From the NCBI RefSeq assembly GCF_947499065.1, contig NZ_CANMMT010000002.1, positions 59,313 to 123,312 of the forward strand: 64,000 bases of DNA. Reading direction: 5' to 3'. The notes under the pieces were generated by a model that worked only from the letters and a program-made list of their open reading frames with translations, had not been told where the DNA came from and did not search any database. The position numbers and the translations under genes are program-made. Source of the DNA: an uncultured Tenacibaculum sp. (lineage in GTDB: Bacteria; Bacteroidota; Bacteroidia; Flavobacteriales; Flavobacteriaceae). Of this stretch, positions 4,416 through 64,000 are shown in pieces (the first letter of the stretch is position 1; every line of letters starts with the position of its first letter).

Positions 4416-5684
4416 ATGCGTTTACGATTTTTATTACAAGCCTCCATAGCCGCATTCGGAACTTATTTCTGTATGTATGCATTTAGGAAACCATTTACGG
4501 TAGCAACATTTGCTAACGAATCATTCATAGGAATAGATTTTAAAATATTACTCATAATAGCTCAAGTAATAGGGTATACACTATCTAAGTTTATAGGAAT
4601 TAGAATAATAGCTGAGATGAAAAGCTCAAAAAGAATGATGTTTTTAATAGGCTTTATTCTTTTTGCTGAATTAGCTCTTTTAGGTTTTGCTACAGTTCCT
4701 GCTCCTTATAATATAGTATGTTTATTTTTTAATGGACTTCCTTTAGGAATGATTTGGGGAATAGTATTTTCCTATTTAGAAGGAAGAAAAGCTACAGAGT
4801 TATTGGGAGTTATTTTATCATCAAGTTTTATCGTGTCTTCAGGCGCTGTAAAATCGGTAGGTAAAATAGTTTTAGATACATTTCACTTTAATGAATATTG
4901 GATGCCTTTTATAACAGGAGGATTTTTTATTATTCCACTAATCTTTTTTGCTTGGTTATTAGAAAGACTACCAGAACCAACAAAAGAAGATAAATTGCTT
5001 AGAACAGTAAGAAAACCATTAGATAAAACTGAAAGAAAGAGGTTGTTTAGAAAGTTTGTAATTCCATTAACTCTTATAGTTTTCTTCTTTATGCTATTGA
5101 CATCTATTAGAGATTTTAGAGACAATTTTGCAAGAGAAATTTGGGATGCATTAGGGTATGAAGACGCATCAATTTATAGTATATCAGAAATACCAATAGC
5201 AATAACAGTACTAATAGTTTTAGGTTTTATAGGGAGCATAACTAAAAACTTTAAAGCTTTTATGTATTATCATTATGTATTGATAATTGGCTGTACTTCA
5301 ATTATCATTTCGACTTTATTATTTCAGCAGTCATTAATTTCTCCCTTAGTATGGATGACGGTTTCAGGATTAGGTTTGTATAGTTGCTATGTACCATTCA
5401 ATGGAATTTTCTTTGATAGAATGATAGCAACTTTTAAAATTAAAGGAAACGTAGGTTTTTTAATATACATAGCAGATGCATTCGGTTATTTGGGTAGTAT
5501 ACTCATTTTACTATATAAAAACTTTGGAAAAGGCGATATTTCTTGGCTAAGCTTTTTCATAACAGCTTTATACTTTTTAGCATTTATAGGGCTAATAATA
5601 ACTACTTATTGTTTTCAATTTTTTAGAAGAAAATATAAAAAACCAATACAAATACAAGAATTAATTTATGAACAACAAATATGA
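4416..5684 (+). CDS. DUF5690-type MFS-like membrane transporter
   Basis: About 12 hydrophobic helices; YFCMYAFRKPF, SSSFIVSSG, RDFRDNF and YIADAFGYLGS motifs recalled for this family. Confidence 0.8.
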   Translation: MRLRFLLQASIAAFGTYFCMYAFRKPFTVATFANESFIGIDFKILLIIAQVIGYTLSKFIGIRIIAEMKSSKRMMFLIGFILFAELALLGFATVPAPYNIVCLFFNGLPLGMIWGIVFSYLEGRKATELLGVILSSSFIVSSGAVKSVGKIVLDTFHFNEYWMPFITGGFFIIPLIFFAWLLERLPEPTKEDKLLRTVRKPLDKTERKRLFRKFVIPLTLIVFFFMLLTSIRDFRDNFAREIWDALGYEDASIYSISEIPIAITVLIVLGFIGSITKNFKAFMYYHYVLIIGCTSIIISTLLFQQSLISPLVWMTVSGLGLYSCYVPFNGIFFDRMIATFKIKGNVGFLIYIADAFGYLGSILILLYKNFGKGDISWLSFFITALYFLAFIGLIITTYCFQFFRRKYKKPIQIQELIYEQQI

Positions 5685-6834
5685 TTTAATTGTAGTGGGA
5701 GGTGGAGTTTTAGGAACTTTCCACGCATATCATGCAGCAAAAAAAGGACTATCGGTAATAATTTTAGAAAAAGATGCAAAACCGAATGGAGCTACAGTAC
5801 GCAATTTTGGGCAAGTAGTTCCTTCAGGGATGAATCAGAAATGGCAAAACTTTGGAAGAGAAAGTTTAGCTATTTATAAAGAAATTCAAAAAGAATTTGA
5901 TATTACTATTAGGCAAAATGGAACGGTATATCTAGCATCAAATGAAGAAGAGGTTCAGTTGATAGAAGAACTTCATGAAATTAATAAGCAAAATAATTAT
6001 ACATCTGAACTATTTACAAAACAGCAATGTTTAAATAAGTATGACGGTTTGCGAAGTGATTATTGTAAAGCAGGTTTATTTTTTCCTCAAGAAGTAACGG
6101 TAGAGCCAAGAACAATGATTTTACAATTACATTCTTTTTTAAGAGAACAAGGTATTCAAGTTTGTTATAATACCACAGTAATAAATACAGAAGAAATAAA
6201 TGGAGAAGTACAAGTAACATCTTCAAATGGAGAAGAGTTTAAAGCATTGAAAGTTTTGATATGCAACGGATCAGATTTTAAAACCTTATATCCTTCAATT
6301 TATAATGAAAGTGATTTAGTTGTTTCTAAATTACAAATGATGCAAACAAAACCACAAGGTAATTATAGGTTAAATGGATCTATTTTAACAGGTTTAACCA
6401 TTAGACGTTATGAAGCTTTTGAAGAATGTTCATCATGGAATTTAATCAAATCGAAAGAAAATCCAAATAGTTTTGAAAAGAAATATGGAGTGCACATATT
6501 ATTTAAGCAAGCTACAGACGGATCTATAATATTAGGTGATTCACATGAATATGCAGATGCAAAGAATATTGACAGTTTAGGTTTCGATTTAAAAGAAGAA
6601 ATTGACAGTTTTATGTTACAAGAAGCAAAGAAAATTATAGAGCTACCAAACTATGAAATCCAGCATCGTTGGGCAGGATTTTATAGTCAATGTAAAACCA
6701 AAGACATTTTTGAACACACTATAGGAGATAATATACATATAGTAACAGGTATAGGAGGGAAAGGAATGACGGGTAGCGCTGGATTTTCAAAAGAAAAAAT
6801 TAATAAGGTATTTAATTTAGTATATGATAAATAA
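5668..6834 (+). CDS. FAD-dependent oxidoreductase, TIGR03364/DAO family (phosphonate-cluster associated)
   Basis: GGGVLG Rossmann motif, GATVRNFGQVVPSG, C-terminal TGIGGKGMTGS; overlaps the upstream gene by 17 nt. Confidence 0.85.
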   Translation: MNNKYDLIVVGGGVLGTFHAYHAAKKGLSVIILEKDAKPNGATVRNFGQVVPSGMNQKWQNFGRESLAIYKEIQKEFDITIRQNGTVYLASNEEEVQLIEELHEINKQNNYTSELFTKQQCLNKYDGLRSDYCKAGLFFPQEVTVEPRTMILQLHSFLREQGIQVCYNTTVINTEEINGEVQVTSSNGEEFKALKVLICNGSDFKTLYPSIYNESDLVVSKLQMMQTKPQGNYRLNGSILTGLTIRRYEAFEECSSWNLIKSKENPNSFEKKYGVHILFKQATDGSIILGDSHEYADAKNIDSLGFDLKEEIDSFMLQEAKKIIELPNYEIQHRWAGFYSQCKTKDIFEHTIGDNIHIVTGIGGKGMTGSAGFSKEKINKVFNLVYDK

Positions 6835-59951: not shown

Positions 59952-60635
59952 TTAAATAAAGCCTTTGTCTCTAGCTATTAGAATAAGATCTTTGTCATCA
60001 GAGCTATTTACACCAAACATTTGTTTAATTTGACGTTTTCTTTTTTCAATACCAGCAAAAGAAAGCGGAATAATATCAGGTAAATCTTTCATTTTTGTAC
60101 CAATAGACAGCTCATATAGCATTTTTCTATCTAAATCGTCAATAAGATATTCACTAGTAACTTCATTTCTAAGAAGTTTCGTAATAGTTTTGCTATAGTA
60201 TGGAGGATCGTTTAAAACTTCTTGTATAGCAGTTACTAACTCTTGAGGAGTAATATCATTTTTAACTAAAAAACCATCAGGGTTTATGCTTTTAAAAATG
60301 CTATGTACTCTATAATTATCGTTAAAAGTAGTAGAAACAATTATTCTAGCATCAGGTAGCATTGTGTTTATTTTTAAACCTAAGTCTTCACCAGATAAAA
60401 TAGTGCCATCAGAAGAAGCTGGTAATCGCATGTCTAAAAAAATGATATCTACTTTTTTAGAGGTATCAGCATGTTGTTTTATAAGCTTATAAGCTTCATC
60501 GCAATTGTGAGCAACGTGGATTTCAAAGGCAATATGTTCGTTTTGTTGATCAATGTAATTAAAGGCACTTTTGTAGGCTTCAGAAATTAATGGATGATCA
60601 TCAATAATTAAAGCAGTGTATTGTTTACTATTCAT
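59952..60635 (-). CDS. Response regulator: receiver domain plus divergent NarL/LuxR-like HTH
   Basis: IIDDH, FLDMRLP (phospho-Asp), STT, LVK; C-terminal LS..GIEKRKRQIKQMF helix. Confidence 0.92.
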   Translation of the reverse strand: MNSKQYTALIIDDHPLISEAYKSAFNYIDQQNEHIAFEIHVAHNCDEAYKLIKQHADTSKKVDIIFLDMRLPASSDGTILSGEDLGLKINTMLPDARIIVSTTFNDNYRVHSIFKSINPDGFLVKNDITPQELVTAIQEVLNDPPYYSKTITKLLRNEVTSEYLIDDLDRKMLYELSIGTKMKDLPDIIPLSFAGIEKRKRQIKQMFGVNSSDDKDLILIARDKGFI

Positions 60636-62658
60636 TATTCATTTTATAAGGGGTTGAAATTAAAAGGGCAGTACCTTTACCTACTTCCGATAAAAACTGT
60701 ACTGTTCCGTTTAATTTGTCTACTCTAGATTTTATGTTTTTCATTCCAATACCTTTTTTACCCTTTTTAGGATTAAAGCCAATGCCGTCGTCTTTTAAAT
60801 TGATAATAAGGTTTTGGTTTTCGTTAGAGAATACTAAAGTAACGTTTTTTGCTTTTGCATGTTTTATAATATTTTGCAAAGCTTCTTGTATAATTCTATA
60901 AATATTAGCTTTGGTAATTTCATTAATGTTTTTCCAAACAATATTTTTATCAAAAGAAAATTTATAGTTAAAGTTACCAATGGTACTTTTATCTTTTAGT
61001 AATTGTTCTATAATACTGGTAAAGTTAATATTAGAGCTATCAAAATTATCGCTCAGTTTGTGAGATACGTCTCTAATTTCCTTTTCAATTTCTTGAAGTT
61101 CATCTAAAAAAGATTGGTGTTTTTCAAGGGTTTGTTCATCACCTTTAAGAGGTAAAAAACCTAAGCCAAAACGAGTTCCAAACAGTTTACCTAGAATACC
61201 ATCATGAAGTTCTTCGGAAATTCTGTTACGTTCTTTAACTTTTTCTTCTTCTAGTTTGGCTTGTTGTTGTAGGGTTAATACATATACTTCTTCGTTAGCT
61301 TTTTGCTGTTCAGCTTCTAGGCTAAGTTTTTCGTTTTTTACCTTTTGAACACGTAAAAAATATAGTAAACTTAAAATAAGGATTCCACCAATACTGGTAA
61401 CAATAATCCAAATACGTTGTTGGTTTAAACGTTTAGTTTCTTCTATGTATTCATCAGTTTCAAACTCAATACGTGTAAATTTATTTTGAGTTCTACGTTC
61501 AGCGCTAATTAAACTATCATTAAACACTATATAGCGATCTAAGTATTTTTTAGAATTTTGTTTGTCTAAATTGGCTAGTTGTTTTAAAGAAGTTAAATAA
61601 TCGCCACCATTTTTTATTTGTTTGGCTAAAGTATTGGCTTCTTTGGCATATTTTAAGGCATTGATAGTGTCTTTATTGTATTTAAAGTAATCGGATATGC
61701 ATATCTTAGAGTTTAAGATATTAGTTTTGTCACCAATACTATCTCTAATGGATAAAGCTTTAAAAAAATCTTTCTTTATACCAGTAGTATCTTTCATTAA
61801 TAGTTTACAATAGGCTTTGTTGTTAAGTAATATAGCATATTGACTTCTGTTTATCTTTTTGTTATTTAAATCTTTATTATAGTATTTAAGGGCGGTTTGA
61901 TAGTCTTTTTTTTCTTGATAAGCATGCCCTATATTGTTATATATTATAATATAGCTTTTTACTCTAGTTTTTTTAGGGATTTTATCAAAATACTCTAGGG
62001 CTTTTATATAATACTCTATGGCTTTATCATATTCTTTTATATCATATTGTAATAAACCTAAATGGTTATATGAATCGTAAAGTTTTTTATGATTTTTTAA
62101 TTCCTTAAATAATTCTATTACTTTAATATTTAAAATTTCACTACCAATATAATCTTTATAGCGTCCTTTAATACGTGTCATTCCCCATAAAACTGTAGAA
62201 GCTTCTTTTTTATGATTTTCTTTAATAAAGTTTTCATAAGCTTTGTTAAAATGAAAGTATGCTTTATCAAATATTTCTAGTTTTACGTAATAACTAGCAT
62301 AATTCCAATGAGCATCTGCTGTAGCATATGTATGTTTATTTTTTATAGCAGAGTTAAGAGCTTTTTTATTTACTTTAAAAAATGAAGTAGTATCTTTCAA
62401 TCTATAGAACTCATAGGCTATAGAACTGAGTTCTAAAGGGAATTGTTTGTTGTGGTTTAAAATATAATTGTAAGATTTTACTAAAAGTTGAGATCTGGAA
62501 GTACTATCTAGTTTTTTATTTTTAGCTTTTTTTAACCAAGTTTTTATACTATCGTTTTTTAGTTTAAACACAGTATGTTTATTAGAGGAAGAAAAGCATA
62601 GTTGATTTCCTATGGATAAGAAAAATATAAATGCTGCAATTTTTTTTAAAGCTTTCAA
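60628..62658 (-). CDS. Membrane sensor histidine kinase: periplasmic TPR array plus HisKA_3 and HATPase_c
   Basis: TTG start, N-terminal hydrophobic segment, TPR helices (SYNHLGLLQYDIKEYDKAIEYY; IYNNIGHAYQEKKDYQTALKYY), TM helix, ERNRISEELHDG, QEALQNIIKH, DDGIGF, GIGMKNI. Confidence 0.94.
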   Translation of the reverse strand: MKALKKIAAFIFFLSIGNQLCFSSSNKHTVFKLKNDSIKTWLKKAKNKKLDSTSRSQLLVKSYNYILNHNKQFPLELSSIAYEFYRLKDTTSFFKVNKKALNSAIKNKHTYATADAHWNYASYYVKLEIFDKAYFHFNKAYENFIKENHKKEASTVLWGMTRIKGRYKDYIGSEILNIKVIELFKELKNHKKLYDSYNHLGLLQYDIKEYDKAIEYYIKALEYFDKIPKKTRVKSYIIIYNNIGHAYQEKKDYQTALKYYNKDLNNKKINRSQYAILLNNKAYCKLLMKDTTGIKKDFFKALSIRDSIGDKTNILNSKICISDYFKYNKDTINALKYAKEANTLAKQIKNGGDYLTSLKQLANLDKQNSKKYLDRYIVFNDSLISAERRTQNKFTRIEFETDEYIEETKRLNQQRIWIIVTSIGGILILSLLYFLRVQKVKNEKLSLEAEQQKANEEVYVLTLQQQAKLEEEKVKERNRISEELHDGILGKLFGTRFGLGFLPLKGDEQTLEKHQSFLDELQEIEKEIRDVSHKLSDNFDSSNINFTSIIEQLLKDKSTIGNFNYKFSFDKNIVWKNINEITKANIYRIIQEALQNIIKHAKAKNVTLVFSNENQNLIINLKDDGIGFNPKKGKKGIGMKNIKSRVDKLNGTVQFLSEVGKGTALLISTPYKMNNE

Positions 62659-62688
62659 ATAATCTGATTTTAAGCAAAGCTAAAAAAA

Positions 62689-62714
62689 AAGCCTTTAACA
62701 TTTGTTAAAGGCTT
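62689..62714 (-). terminator. Strong intrinsic terminator after the lipopeptide gene
   Basis: aagcctttaaca-aa-tgttaaaggctt followed by a long U-run on the minus strand. Confidence 0.88.
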
Positions 62715-62732
62715 GTATTTATAAAAAAATGA

Positions 62733-62954
62733 TTAAGATCCAGCACCACGACCATTTCCTTTACCTCCATCATCATTACCTCCATCATTACCACCACCAG
62801 TATCGCCTCCGTAGATATTATCATCATCGCCTATACCAGTTGTTAATTCTGTATTGTTTTTTTCAGGAACTAAATCGTCTTTTGTTAAGTCTGTACAACT
62901 TGTAGTTAAAAGGATTAGCATGCTGATTAGTAAAGTAGTTTTTAAAGTTTTCAT
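62733..62954 (-). CDS. Small lipoprotein (73 aa) with a Gly/Asp/Asn-rich tail, directly upstream of the TPR kinase
   Basis: MKTLKTTLLISMLILLTTSC lipoprotein signal; A-rich translation initiation region; own terminator; ATG at 62954 preferred over TTG at 62963. Confidence 0.85.
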   Translation of the reverse strand: MKTLKTTLLISMLILLTTSCTDLTKDDLVPEKNNTELTTGIGDDDNIYGGDTGGGNDGGNDDGGKGNGRGAGS

Positions 62955-62989
62955 AATTTTCAATTTTTAATATTTGACATTAGTTTTCC

Positions 62990-63330
62990 ATGCCGCATAT
63001 GCAGCAGTAATAGCATCGAATTGGTTATGTTCGATTTTTTTTGAGCCTTGGTAAAATCAAGGCAATAGTCATCTAGCCCAAGTAATTTGGGTAGTTAGTA
63101 GAATTAAGTTGATATGGAACATCAACTCGTGAAGACTCATTACTACTAAGGCCTATTGAGTACAACAGACTTCAGGAATTCTACATTGTCATAAATAAAG
63201 GAAGCGTTTTTGCAATTTTTAATGAACGCTAGTTGATTCTGTCACTAAAATAGTGACATAGATTGTGTAAACGAACACAATTTTAGTAAGCGTTGTTGTT
63301 TAATGAGTAAACGTCCTTTTTCATTTAGTT
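62990..63330 (-). ncRNA. Candidate structured leader / ncRNA upstream of the lipopeptide gene
   Basis: About nine stems in about 330 nt including a multibranch junction; no ORF of 60 aa or more; strand not certain. Confidence 0.5.
63283..63324 (-). CDS. Candidate 13-aa upstream ORF MKKDVYSLNNNAY
   Basis: ATG a few nt after a near-consensus -7 element (TAAAATTG, 63335-63342); covers a switchable helix. Confidence 0.25.
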   Translation of the reverse strand: MKKDVYSLNNNAY

Positions 63331-63451
63331 TGTGCAATTTTAATATAATCATAGCTTTCAATTTCGTTCAATTAAGATAGTGAAAAATAACGAATTACAC
63401 AAGTTTTTTAATACTTTTTTTACTGTGTTCGTTTTTATTTTTTGGAATAAA

Positions 63452-63478
63452 AAAAGGCGCCCTTTTAAGGCGCCTTTT
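63452..63478 (-). terminator. GC-rich intrinsic terminator after the 38-aa ORF
   Basis: aaaaggcgcc/ggcgcctttt with a U-run on the minus strand. Confidence 0.85.
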
Positions 63479-63506
63479 GTATATATACTATATTAATGAC
63501 TTGTTG

Positions 63507-63623
63507 TTAACTCATCTTTAAATATTGCTTCTTACAATAAACATCCTTACTCATTTTTATATAACTGCCATCACCTCCTATAATTAGTCTTTCGATGATT
63601 GGGTTTAAATAAAATAGTTTCAT
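63507..63623 (-). CDS. Small ORF of 38 aa missing from the ORF track (MKLFYLNPIIERLIIGGDGSYIKMSKDVYCKKQYLKMS)
   Basis: Consensus promoter (TTG-N19-TATATTTG), 5' hairpin, A-rich initiation region and downstream terminator bracket it. Confidence 0.6.
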   Translation of the reverse strand: MKLFYLNPIIERLIIGGDGSYIKMSKDVYCKKQYLKMS

Positions 63624-63681
63624 AATCTTTAAATATTAATTTGTTAAATAATCATTCAAATACTTCTGAATGATTACGGTA

Positions 63682-63731
63682 CAAATATACAAAATATTTT
63701 AATAAAAACAAGGAAAATAACGAGTTATTTT
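63682..63731 (-). promoter_or_regulatory. Promoter of the 38-aa ORF with an upstream 8-2-8 palindrome
   Basis: TATATTTG (63682-63689), TTG (63709-63711), AAAATAAC-GA-GTTATTTT (63714-63731). Confidence 0.6.
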
Positions 63732-63898
63732 ATTGGTAATCAGTAAGTTAAGTTGTTTTTAAGGTAGGAAGGTCCTGTCCAGATATTATCTAGATTTTAG
63801 CTATTTAGCAACAGTTTGTAATTCAGTTCTTTACGAGTCAAAGTGTGTTTTTTGTATGTTTAAATTAAAAATGTCATTTTTTAAAAAAAATTATAAAA

Positions 63899-63927
63899 AA
63901 AGCGTCCAATTTATAGTTGGACGCTTT
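63899..63927 (-). terminator. Terminator of a minus-strand gene entering from the right edge
   Basis: aaagcgtccaa/ttggacgcttt. Confidence 0.8.
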
Positions 63928-63952
63928 ATATATTGTTAATTTATGTATTGAA

Positions 63953-64000
63953 TCATATTCGAAAATTGTCAGAAATAAACACATTACGTCCGTTTTTATA
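63953..64000 (-). CDS. C-terminal end of a gene truncated by the window edge (...YKNGRNVFISDNFRI*)
   Basis: Open frame from base 64000 to a TGA about 25 nt before a terminator. Confidence 0.5.
   Translation of the reverse strand, partial: YKNGRNVFISDNFRI

Follow-up and report, generated by a model that had tools for sequence, protein, structure and literature searches.

The described systems closest to the RNA element considered here are (i) the Salmonella mgtA leader with mgtL, which combines a short translated open reading frame (ORF) with a structured sensor, (ii) processive antitermination RNAs, such as EAR of the Bacillus eps operons and put of phage HK022, and (iii) response-regulator operators built from direct repeats about two helical turns apart, as for LytTR regulators at peptide-signal promoters. 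A further group comprises orphan riboswitch candidates and CMfinder-type leaders (PMC1950547). The element lies on the minus strand of a 64,000-nucleotide stretch of DNA (hereafter the window) from an uncultured Tenacibaculum sp. of the Flavobacteriaceae (NCBI RefSeq assembly GCF_947499065.1, contig NZ_CANMMT010000002.1, positions 59,313 to 123,312). The element is real and had not been catalogued before: a structured leader RNA, conserved at the level of the genus, in front of the gene for a small lipoprotein. Its conserved folded domain (63240-62955) probably acts in cis on the lipoprotein mRNA, as a new family of cis-regulatory leader RNA.

Like the orphan riboswitch candidates (PMC1950547), the element lies in a leader next to a start codon, forms a multi-helix junction with covarying stems, retains invariant unpaired nucleotides, and has a constant gene association. 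Unlike them, it matches no catalogued family, yielded no expression platform, is found in one genus plus close relatives, and precedes a tiny lipoprotein gene rather than a metabolic or transport gene. It shares with mgtA/mgtL a long leader in which a short ORF over alternatively pairing RNA is followed by a structured domain. However, the two have no sequence or structural homology, the upstream ORF (uORF1) is putative with an unconserved peptide, and no Rho-dependent or intrinsic termination step was identified. As with EAR and put, a structured RNA sits in a long transcript whose strong terminator-like hairpins are apparently read through; the differences are that it has no Rfam match and that, of the three terminators, two precede the element. 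The 5′ third of the leader resembles LytTR-type operators in its 10-nucleotide (nt) repeats 21 nt apart, a small secreted peptide gene, and an adjacent two-component system, whereas the regulator encoded nearby is NarL-like, and the repeats, a candidate operator, fall within the uORF and are transcribed as well.

The domain (~290 nt, 63240 to 62955, window positions descending along the transcript) is built from the seven conserved helices P1-P7, a closing helix of long range, and the hairpins H5 and H6, whose position is fixed and whose sequence varies (Table 1). Six helices of the core (P1-P6, 39 pairs) were evaluated in a 30-sequence alignment. Standard pairs fill 97.7% of the pair cells; sliding the 3′ partners by 1-3 columns lowers this share to 27-43%. 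Changes on both sides occur in six pairs (33 cells), located in P4, P5, and P6, and none of 500 shuffles reaches the covariation score. The dense structure that a preliminary description had claimed for this DNA is also borne out by folding energy: the minus strand of 62964-63345 folds to -89 kcal/mol (z = -5.91, with 0 of 100 shuffles as good), while the plus strand has z = -3.07, and the 171-nt core (63066-63236) gives z = -3.10 and -0.86 on the minus and plus strands, respectively. Because G-U cells outnumber A-C cells by 55 to 7 and the z-scores show this asymmetry, the strand ambiguity of the preliminary description can be settled: the RNA corresponds to the minus strand and has the same sense as the lipoprotein gene. 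The GC contrast reported there was reproduced as well (0.343 over 63001-63300 versus 0.200 over 63361-63420; 0.298 for the window overall).

These results bear on two alternatives that dispense with a functional RNA fold. The stems could represent a palindromic operator array in the DNA that is bound by transcription factors; several are perfect short palindromes, and the 21-nt-spaced direct repeats and promoter-like boxes of the 5′ third are indeed best read as DNA signals. The wobble count and the strand asymmetry oppose such an array, as do the nested long-range helices (P2 spans 87 nt and the closing helix 215 nt), hairpins that change sequence and stay paired, and the transcription of the region, and we consider it highly improbable. 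The second alternative is that of chance hairpins in an AT-rich spacer or a decaying pseudogene. AT-rich intergenic DNA does form many short hairpins, and two of the stems in the preliminary description are species-specific, but the folding energy, the covariation, a genus-wide conservation above that of neighboring genes, and the lack of a conserved ORF in the core (a 30-residue ORF at 63073-63165 ends after 12 codons in clade B) leave this option scarcely credible.

Table 1. Features of the leader locus in the window. L009 is the orthologous locus of T. discolor; stems of the preliminary description are listed last, in plus-strand coordinates.
Feature	Coordinates	Strand	Sequence or composition	Remarks
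T1 terminator	63927-63899	-		Closes a ~170-nt unit (L009:4575-4748) whose 3′ end is the window's last 100 nt
-33 element, canonical Bacteroidetes-type promoter	63709..63711	-	TTG	19 nt before the -7 box; conserved in L009
-7 box of the same promoter	63682..63689	-	TATATTTG	Predicted transcription start near 63677
Hairpin	63674-63645	-	13 bp	Directly after predicted start of upstream unit
sORF2	63507..63623	-	38 codons	Conserved only in ...KDVYC..KYL; contains AAGGATGTTTATT (63548-63536)
T2	63452..63478	-	Terminator-like hairpin and U-tract	28 nt past sORF2 stop; stem covaries; read through in RNA contigs
Promoter-like block	63370..63404	-	CTTG, 20 nt, TATCTTAA	Upstream of uORF1; conserved; also in L098, L022, L024
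uORF1	63245..63352	-	ATG, 35 codons, TAG
25-nt block	63304..63328	-	CTAAATGAAAAAGGACGTTTACTCA	Invariant or nearly so, wobble positions fixed
Direct repeats	63283..63313	-	CGTTTACTCA / CGCTTACTAA	10 nt each, 21 nt apart; overlap the 25-nt block
Promoter-like -7 box	63245..63252	-	TATTTTAG	Predicted start ~63240; 3′ strand of Px; carries uORF1 stop
P1 hairpin	63203..63230	-	AGCGUU/AACGCU	Loop AAAAUUGCA conserved; invariant in 30 sequences; kept in L098, L021, L041
P2 outer helix	63098..63184	-	GUAGAAUU/AAUUCUAC	Encloses three-way junction; 98.3% paired
P3	63130..63174	-	UGAAG/CUUCA	Core alignment
P4	63141..63162	-	UACU/AGUA	Closes 14-nt loop CAAUAGGCCUUAGU, invariant or nearly so
P5	63106..63128	-	GAGUUGAU/AUCAACUU	3 covarying pairs
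P6	63073..63094	-	CUACCCAA/UUGGG-C-UAG	UA to CG in 13 sequences; CG to UG in 12
H5 hairpin	63045..63063	-	At least 9 stem sequences	Position fixed, sequence variable; hairpin in 28/28 species
H6 hairpin	63015..63035	-	AUCGAA/UUCGAU	Missing in 5 species
P7	62992..63005	-	GCUGC/GCGGC	100% paired; CG to UA in 5 sequences
Long-range closing helix	62976..63190	-	GACA (63190-63187) / UGUC (62979-62976)	98.1% paired
Small lipoprotein gene	62733..62954	-	73 amino acids	ATG 62954-62952; lipobox LTTSC; G/D/N-rich tail
T3 terminator	62689..62714	-		3′ of lipoprotein gene
TPR-HisKA_3-HATPase sensor kinase and NarL-like response regulator	59952..62658	-		Downstream of lipoprotein gene; regulator at 59952-60635
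Low-depth RNA contigs	63050-63241 (X26)			On L009: 5388-5679 (X42), 5422-5668, 5418-5767, 5495-5710
Stem	63015-63035	+	ATCGAA/TTCGAT	H6
Stem	63045-63063	+	GCCTTG/CAAGGC	H5
Stem	63077-63091	+	CCCAA/TTGGG	Part of P6 CTACCCAA/TTGGGCTAG
Stem	63098-63184	+	GTAGAATT/AATTCTAC	P2
Stem	63107-63127	+	AGTTGAT/ATCAACT	P5, (G)AGTTGAT/ATCAACT(T)
Stem	63130-63174	+	TGAAG/CTTCA	P3
Stem	63135-63161	+	ACTCA/TGAGT	Broken in about half of species
Stem	63203-63230	+	AGCGTT/AACGCT	P1
Stem	63240-63258	+	TGTCACTA/TAGTGACA	Only in window's closest relatives
Stem	63262-63281	+	ATTGTGT/ACACAAT	Only in window's closest relatives
Stem	63290-63314	+	GCGTT/AACGT	Mere 4 bp on transcribed strand

All eleven stems of the preliminary description are present in the window, and those corresponding to P1, P2, P3, P5, P6, H5, and H6 are conserved or covary among relatives. 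The ACUCA/UGAGU helix was rejected, since clades B and D cannot form it and P4 covaries in its place, with UA to AU changes in 6 sequences. A candidate pseudoknot between the loop CAAUAG and CUAUUG (63070-63065) can form 6 bp in most species and was likewise set aside, as it is broken in L023, L029, L014, and L030. The closing helix, which ends the domain ~22 nt upstream of the lipoprotein AUG, shows five changes, all of them one-sided and wobble-compatible, and no double changes. In a further helix, Px (CUAAAAU/AUUUUAG), 87% of the cells are paired and one pair covaries.

By direct reading, the outgroup L098, a metagenome contig, rebuilds the helices with other letters: P2 as AGAAUUUC/GAAAUUCU (shifted but kept), P4 as CUCC/GGAG (also in L041), P6 as UGCCU/AGGCA, H5 as CCUGAA/UUCAGG, H6 as AUCGG/CCGAU, and P7 as GCUGU/ACGGC. 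P7 is kept in L098, L021 (a Polaribacter genome), L041 (a Flavobacteriaceae metagenome-assembled genome, MAG), L022, and L024. Complementarity also links three segments: the invariant block (GAAAAAGGACGUUU), the P1 3′ strand with CUUCCUU, and AGGAAAAC, a block close to the start codon. All three are invariant and thus provide no covariation.

By blastn, 27 other Tenacibaculum species share the whole of 62660-64000 in synteny, at 68-90% identity. Within it, the ~570-nt region between the upstream unit and the lipoprotein gene measures 543-569 nt across species, and long invariant blocks alternate with variable segments in the alignment. Mean column identity in the core is 78%, whereas the adjoining kinase is just 60-84% identical as protein. 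Searches with nhmmer and a covariance model recovered full-length, far more divergent copies in L021, L041, and L098; still more divergent versions in L022 and L024 were recognised by eye only. The covariance model did not reach Lutibacter, Flavobacterium, L022, or L024, and neither it nor blastn of the region found a second copy within the window.

A metagenome scan with an invariant 23-nt block gave 120 matches, of which the relevant ones are L098, L117, L138, and L187. Nearly all others fall in one unrelated coding sequence of L080-L199 that is abundant in marine metagenomes (reverse strand ...YGYSKHSFPFS...) and that we take to be SAR11 signal peptidase I (lepB). In L187 the exact block, CTAAATGAAAAAGGACGTTTACT, occurs on an unrelated contig (~1014-1036, minus strand) ~90 nt upstream of a gene for a secreted protein of 235 amino acids; this copy could be due to chance or be a shared binding site.

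The element matches no described family, in agreement with the preliminary description. Rfam 15 gives no match at gathering score in the whole window, which extends the absence of any likeness to tRNA, tmRNA, RNase P, and SRP RNA to 6S-Flavo, Flavo-1, EAR/epsC, and known riboswitches. At E<=10, nothing falls inside 62964-63345, and the weak matches elsewhere all lie on terminator hairpins; the orthologous 2.1 kb of T. discolor (L009) gave no match at E<=0.01. Literature searches found no prior description of the element, and the small RNAs reported from T. mesophilum vesicles are 30 nt long and unrelated to it.

Transcription was assessed from assembled contigs. The isolate RNA-seq runs X33-X36 represent an organism that shares ~95-97% identity with T. 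discolor L009, and in them one contig extends from L009:4575, which corresponds to a point beyond window position 64000, through the non-coding region and the lipoprotein gene into the kinase gene at a depth of ~370. The contigs are preceded at L009:4575 by GTTCAGAGTTCTACAGTCCGACGATC, presumably the Illumina 5′ RNA adapter; if so, this position is a genuine RNA 5′ end in the plus sense of the locus. Metatranscriptome contigs with depths of 24 and 190 run from L009:5020 and 4996, respectively, to inside the lipoprotein gene and span sORF2, T2, the uORF, and the core. Their starts lie ~30-55 nt downstream of the predicted start of the canonical promoter (63711-63682).

The preliminary description had placed the transcript start at a near-consensus -7 element, TAAAATTG, on the minus strand at 63335-63342. 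The octamer is present there, and the start is not, as RNA contigs run through it from upstream (63146-63506 and 63109-63387). The Bacteroidetes -7 consensus is TAnnTTTG, from which TAAAATTG deviates by one mismatch; it has no -33 element at the usual 19-21 nt (the nearest TTG is 16 nt upstream), lies inside the conserved uORF, and reads CAATATTG in clades D-F. The idea of an undescribed cis-regulatory leader thus keeps its substance, that is, a structured, transcribed RNA, conserved with covariation, in the lipoprotein 5′ leader, and loses the proposed start and its unity. The structured domain extends from ~63240 to 62955, while 63352-63245 is separate, its two local hairpins not being conserved.

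Within this transcript, the segment from core to AUG seems to persist or to be made in excess. Five low-depth contigs, on L009 or with at least 99% identity on the window, all fall within it, and three metatranscriptomes cover the leader at far greater depth than the kinase region. Two contig ends (window 63241 in X26, and L009:5388, or about window 63239-63243, in X42) coincide with the start predicted from the box TATTTTAG. Taken with the invariant or nearly invariant loops, these features might also be expected of a trans-acting small RNA, either stand-alone from an internal promoter near 63240 or cut from the leader, whose loops AAAAUUGCA and CAAUAGGCCUUAGU would target other mRNAs by base pairing or recruit a protein; the lipoprotein gene would then just happen to follow. 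Such an RNA is improbable: no terminator or 3′ end was found between core and AUG, the most conserved 3′ block runs directly into the lipoprotein start codon at fixed spacing, and the element stands in front of the lipoprotein gene at every locus examined, including L098, L022, and L024. Moreover, a truly abundant nearby RNA assembles alone in the isolate libraries, which the core does not. This ~165-nt RNA (L009:4230-4395, minus strand of the locus, outside the window) has its own terminator, adjoins a divergent lipoprotein gene, has no Rfam match, and reaches a contig depth of 3915 versus ~370 for the operon.

The proximal third of the leader is dominated by uORF1. Its ATG is present in 27 of 28 species and its frame is fully open in 20 of 28, with truncation at 19-31 codons in the other eight. 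Stops average 0.36 per sequence in frame 0 versus 5.4 and 2.1 in the other frames, and the variable half is stop-free in 20 of 27 sequences versus ~18% in shuffles. No coding signature at the third position was detected (entropy by codon position 0.62/0.70/0.65). Given this even variation, the truncations, and an invariant block that includes wobble positions, selection appears to act on nucleotides rather than amino acids. A type I toxin-antitoxin system was also considered: the uORF1 peptide lacks a long hydrophobic run and is unconserved beyond the invariant nucleotide block, and an antisense RNA finds no support in the plus strand of the core, which folds no better than shuffles. The sequence AAGGAYGTTTAYT occurs exactly twice in the window, at 63536-63548 and 63306-63318, both times in the leader on the minus strand; it reads KDVY in the sORF2 frame and MKKDVYS in an alternative frame of uORF1 from an ATG inside the invariant block.

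The open frame, together with a start (cUAUGAAAA) conserved as far as L022 and L024, raises the question of a leader-peptide attenuator in which uORF1 is the sensor and ribosome position decides whether the invariant block pairs with AACGCUUCC or the P1 hairpin forms. By direct reading, the block can pair with the P1 3′ strand in Tenacibaculum, L098, L021, and L041, and the uORF stop lies within Px, 14 nt before P1. We nevertheless regard this mechanism as quite unlikely, as no terminator follows uORF1 and no attenuator hairpins lie directly downstream of it (sORF2, by contrast, has T2 after 28 nt), the substitution pattern is non-coding, the uORF is truncated in eight species, and L022 has the block outside its uORF. 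In addition, GCUAUG is a poor start context for Bacteroidetes. Finally, masking the uORF in silico (ViennaRNA) leaves access to the lipoprotein start unchanged, the start region being mostly unpaired in both states (0.71 versus 0.78).

The same third probably holds an internal promoter, TATTTTAG, that fires at ~63240, with the direct repeats as a candidate operator upstream. The repeats give 1 match in the window versus 0.02 expected, lie at about -41 to -72 from the box, are perfect in L098, and in L022 occur outside the uORF at the same distance (~95 nt) from the P1 loop. The box reads TAwTTTAR in all 28 species and the outgroups, and no species has indels between the repeats and the box. 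The element 19 nt upstream of it is TTTG or TTG in clades D-F and TTCG, TTCA, or similar in clades A-C. We thus read the 5′ third as regulatory, and on read-through transcripts translation of the uORF may matter.

Upstream of the uORF, the unit at 63445-63711 (minus strand) combines a promoter, a hairpin, sORF2, and T2 in a layout like that of a leader-peptide attenuator. A consensus scan rates T1-T3 as strong (5 sites versus 0.3 expected), yet single RNA contigs cross all three with similar depth on both sides in the isolate runs, and T2 is crossed at a depth of 190 in a metatranscriptome. Antitermination or attenuation might account for this, with the structured RNA and the two small ORFs deciding read-through of T3 into the kinase and regulator genes, much as EAR or put would. 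The sORF2 stop just before T2 is compatible with such a role, as is the invariant block GAAAAAGG(A)CG, which is complementary to the T2 3′ arm plus U-tract in all species (RNAalifold). However, the block lies 150 nt downstream of T2 and therefore cannot act before termination there, and an A-run followed by GG pairs with nearly any terminator arm; a meaningful pairing was rejected, since the match is probably generic complementarity between an A-run and a U-tract. Flat contig depth cannot reveal partial termination, the far lower coverage of the kinase than of the leader in metatranscriptomes is consistent with working terminators, and there is no likeness to EAR or any other Rfam antitermination RNA, all of which makes this explanation very unlikely. 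The ~170-nt unit closed by T1 contains GGACGT (63991-63986), reminiscent of the invariant block.

Returning to a leader RNA that acts in cis, its folded domain would bind or sense a small molecule, a protein, or an RNA, and depending on the state of the domain the lipoprotein mRNA would be translated more or less and/or last for a longer or shorter time. The domain could also make the leader fragment outlast the downstream coding RNA. The proximal third (63352-63245) would form a separate control layer, its uORF conserved in openness and not in peptide, and the TAnnTTAG box would serve as an internal promoter at ~63240, possibly activated by a response regulator. A conserved, covarying, aptamer-like structured domain in a 5′ leader is what a riboswitch would present; an expression platform was not found, as the terminator consensus scan detected no terminator-like site between 63245 and 62955 and no helix is predicted to mask the start region. 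A more specific idea is that the ~290-nt domain represents a novel sensor RNA class, either riboswitch-like or a dock for a dedicated RNA-binding protein, and gates a secreted lipopeptide feeding the adjacent TPR kinase and regulator; this is rather unlikely.

Several observations weigh against cis control by this leader. We infer the action on the lipoprotein from arrangement and conservation, and ligand, partner, and output are proposals. P1-P3 and the closing helix are invariant or changed on one side only and so contribute no covariation evidence, and the distribution is narrow, comprising one genus plus a few relatives. The RNA evidence consists of assembled contigs of flat depth with no read-level 5′ ends. 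The clustering of low-depth contigs is incomplete, as an X28 contig covers the uORF and promoter-like region (63306-63456) and an X15 contig the lipoprotein coding sequence, and the leader excess is not universal, since the isolate runs have similar mean depths of 368 for the leader and 341 for the kinase. No simple start-codon occlusion switch is predicted, because the start region is modelled as mostly unpaired with or without the uORF masked. For the internal promoter, position 7 of TATTTTAG deviates from the consensus, and three clades have a degenerate -33 element.

The lipoprotein has 17 homologues by protein search, which brought no further loci, and all those with a source name are from Tenacibaculum; profile searches assigned no Pfam or NCBIfam family. 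The kinase (60628-62658, minus strand) has 676 amino acids, and its nearest relatives are those of Tenacibaculum, with 84% identity in T. aiptasiae and 60-79% in others. In Lutibacter and Flavobacterium (L031:4773-5867, L053:4564-5864), a small secreted peptide or lipoprotein whose tail is rich in G/S/D likewise precedes the TPR kinase orthologue, and a LytTR response-regulator gene occupies the place of the ~1.5 kb of non-coding sequence in Tenacibaculum. The T3 sequence (AAGCCTTTAACAAATGTTAAAGGCTT) is 80-90% identical even in Lutibacter, Hanstruepera, and other genera, which is unusual for a plain terminator. L011 and L012 are copies of the same locus at two places on the MAG contig CBDTZS010000005.1 (1-9352 and 14891-28789); their match statistics are identical, and the locus is either duplicated or an artefact of assembly.

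The regulatory RNAs of Bacteroidota, and of marine Flavobacteriia especially, are poorly charted. Bacteroidota do not use Shine-Dalgarno pairing, and control of translation by long leaders is largely uncharted in this phylum. The element would add a family to Rfam, and even if it is only a stabilising leader, it would be a useful annotation that explains 1 kb of "empty" intergenic DNA. The gene arrangement, in which a small secreted lipoprotein precedes a TPR kinase, recurs across the Flavobacteriaceae and has the appearance of a peptide-signal module. If the RNA is a sensor, it would offer a handle on what triggers the circuit in colonisers of corals, oysters, jellyfish, and fish. Should the sensor reading prove true, a peptide-signalling circuit of marine Flavobacteriaceae would be under control at the RNA level, with the uORF and a regulator-dependent internal promoter as extra inputs.

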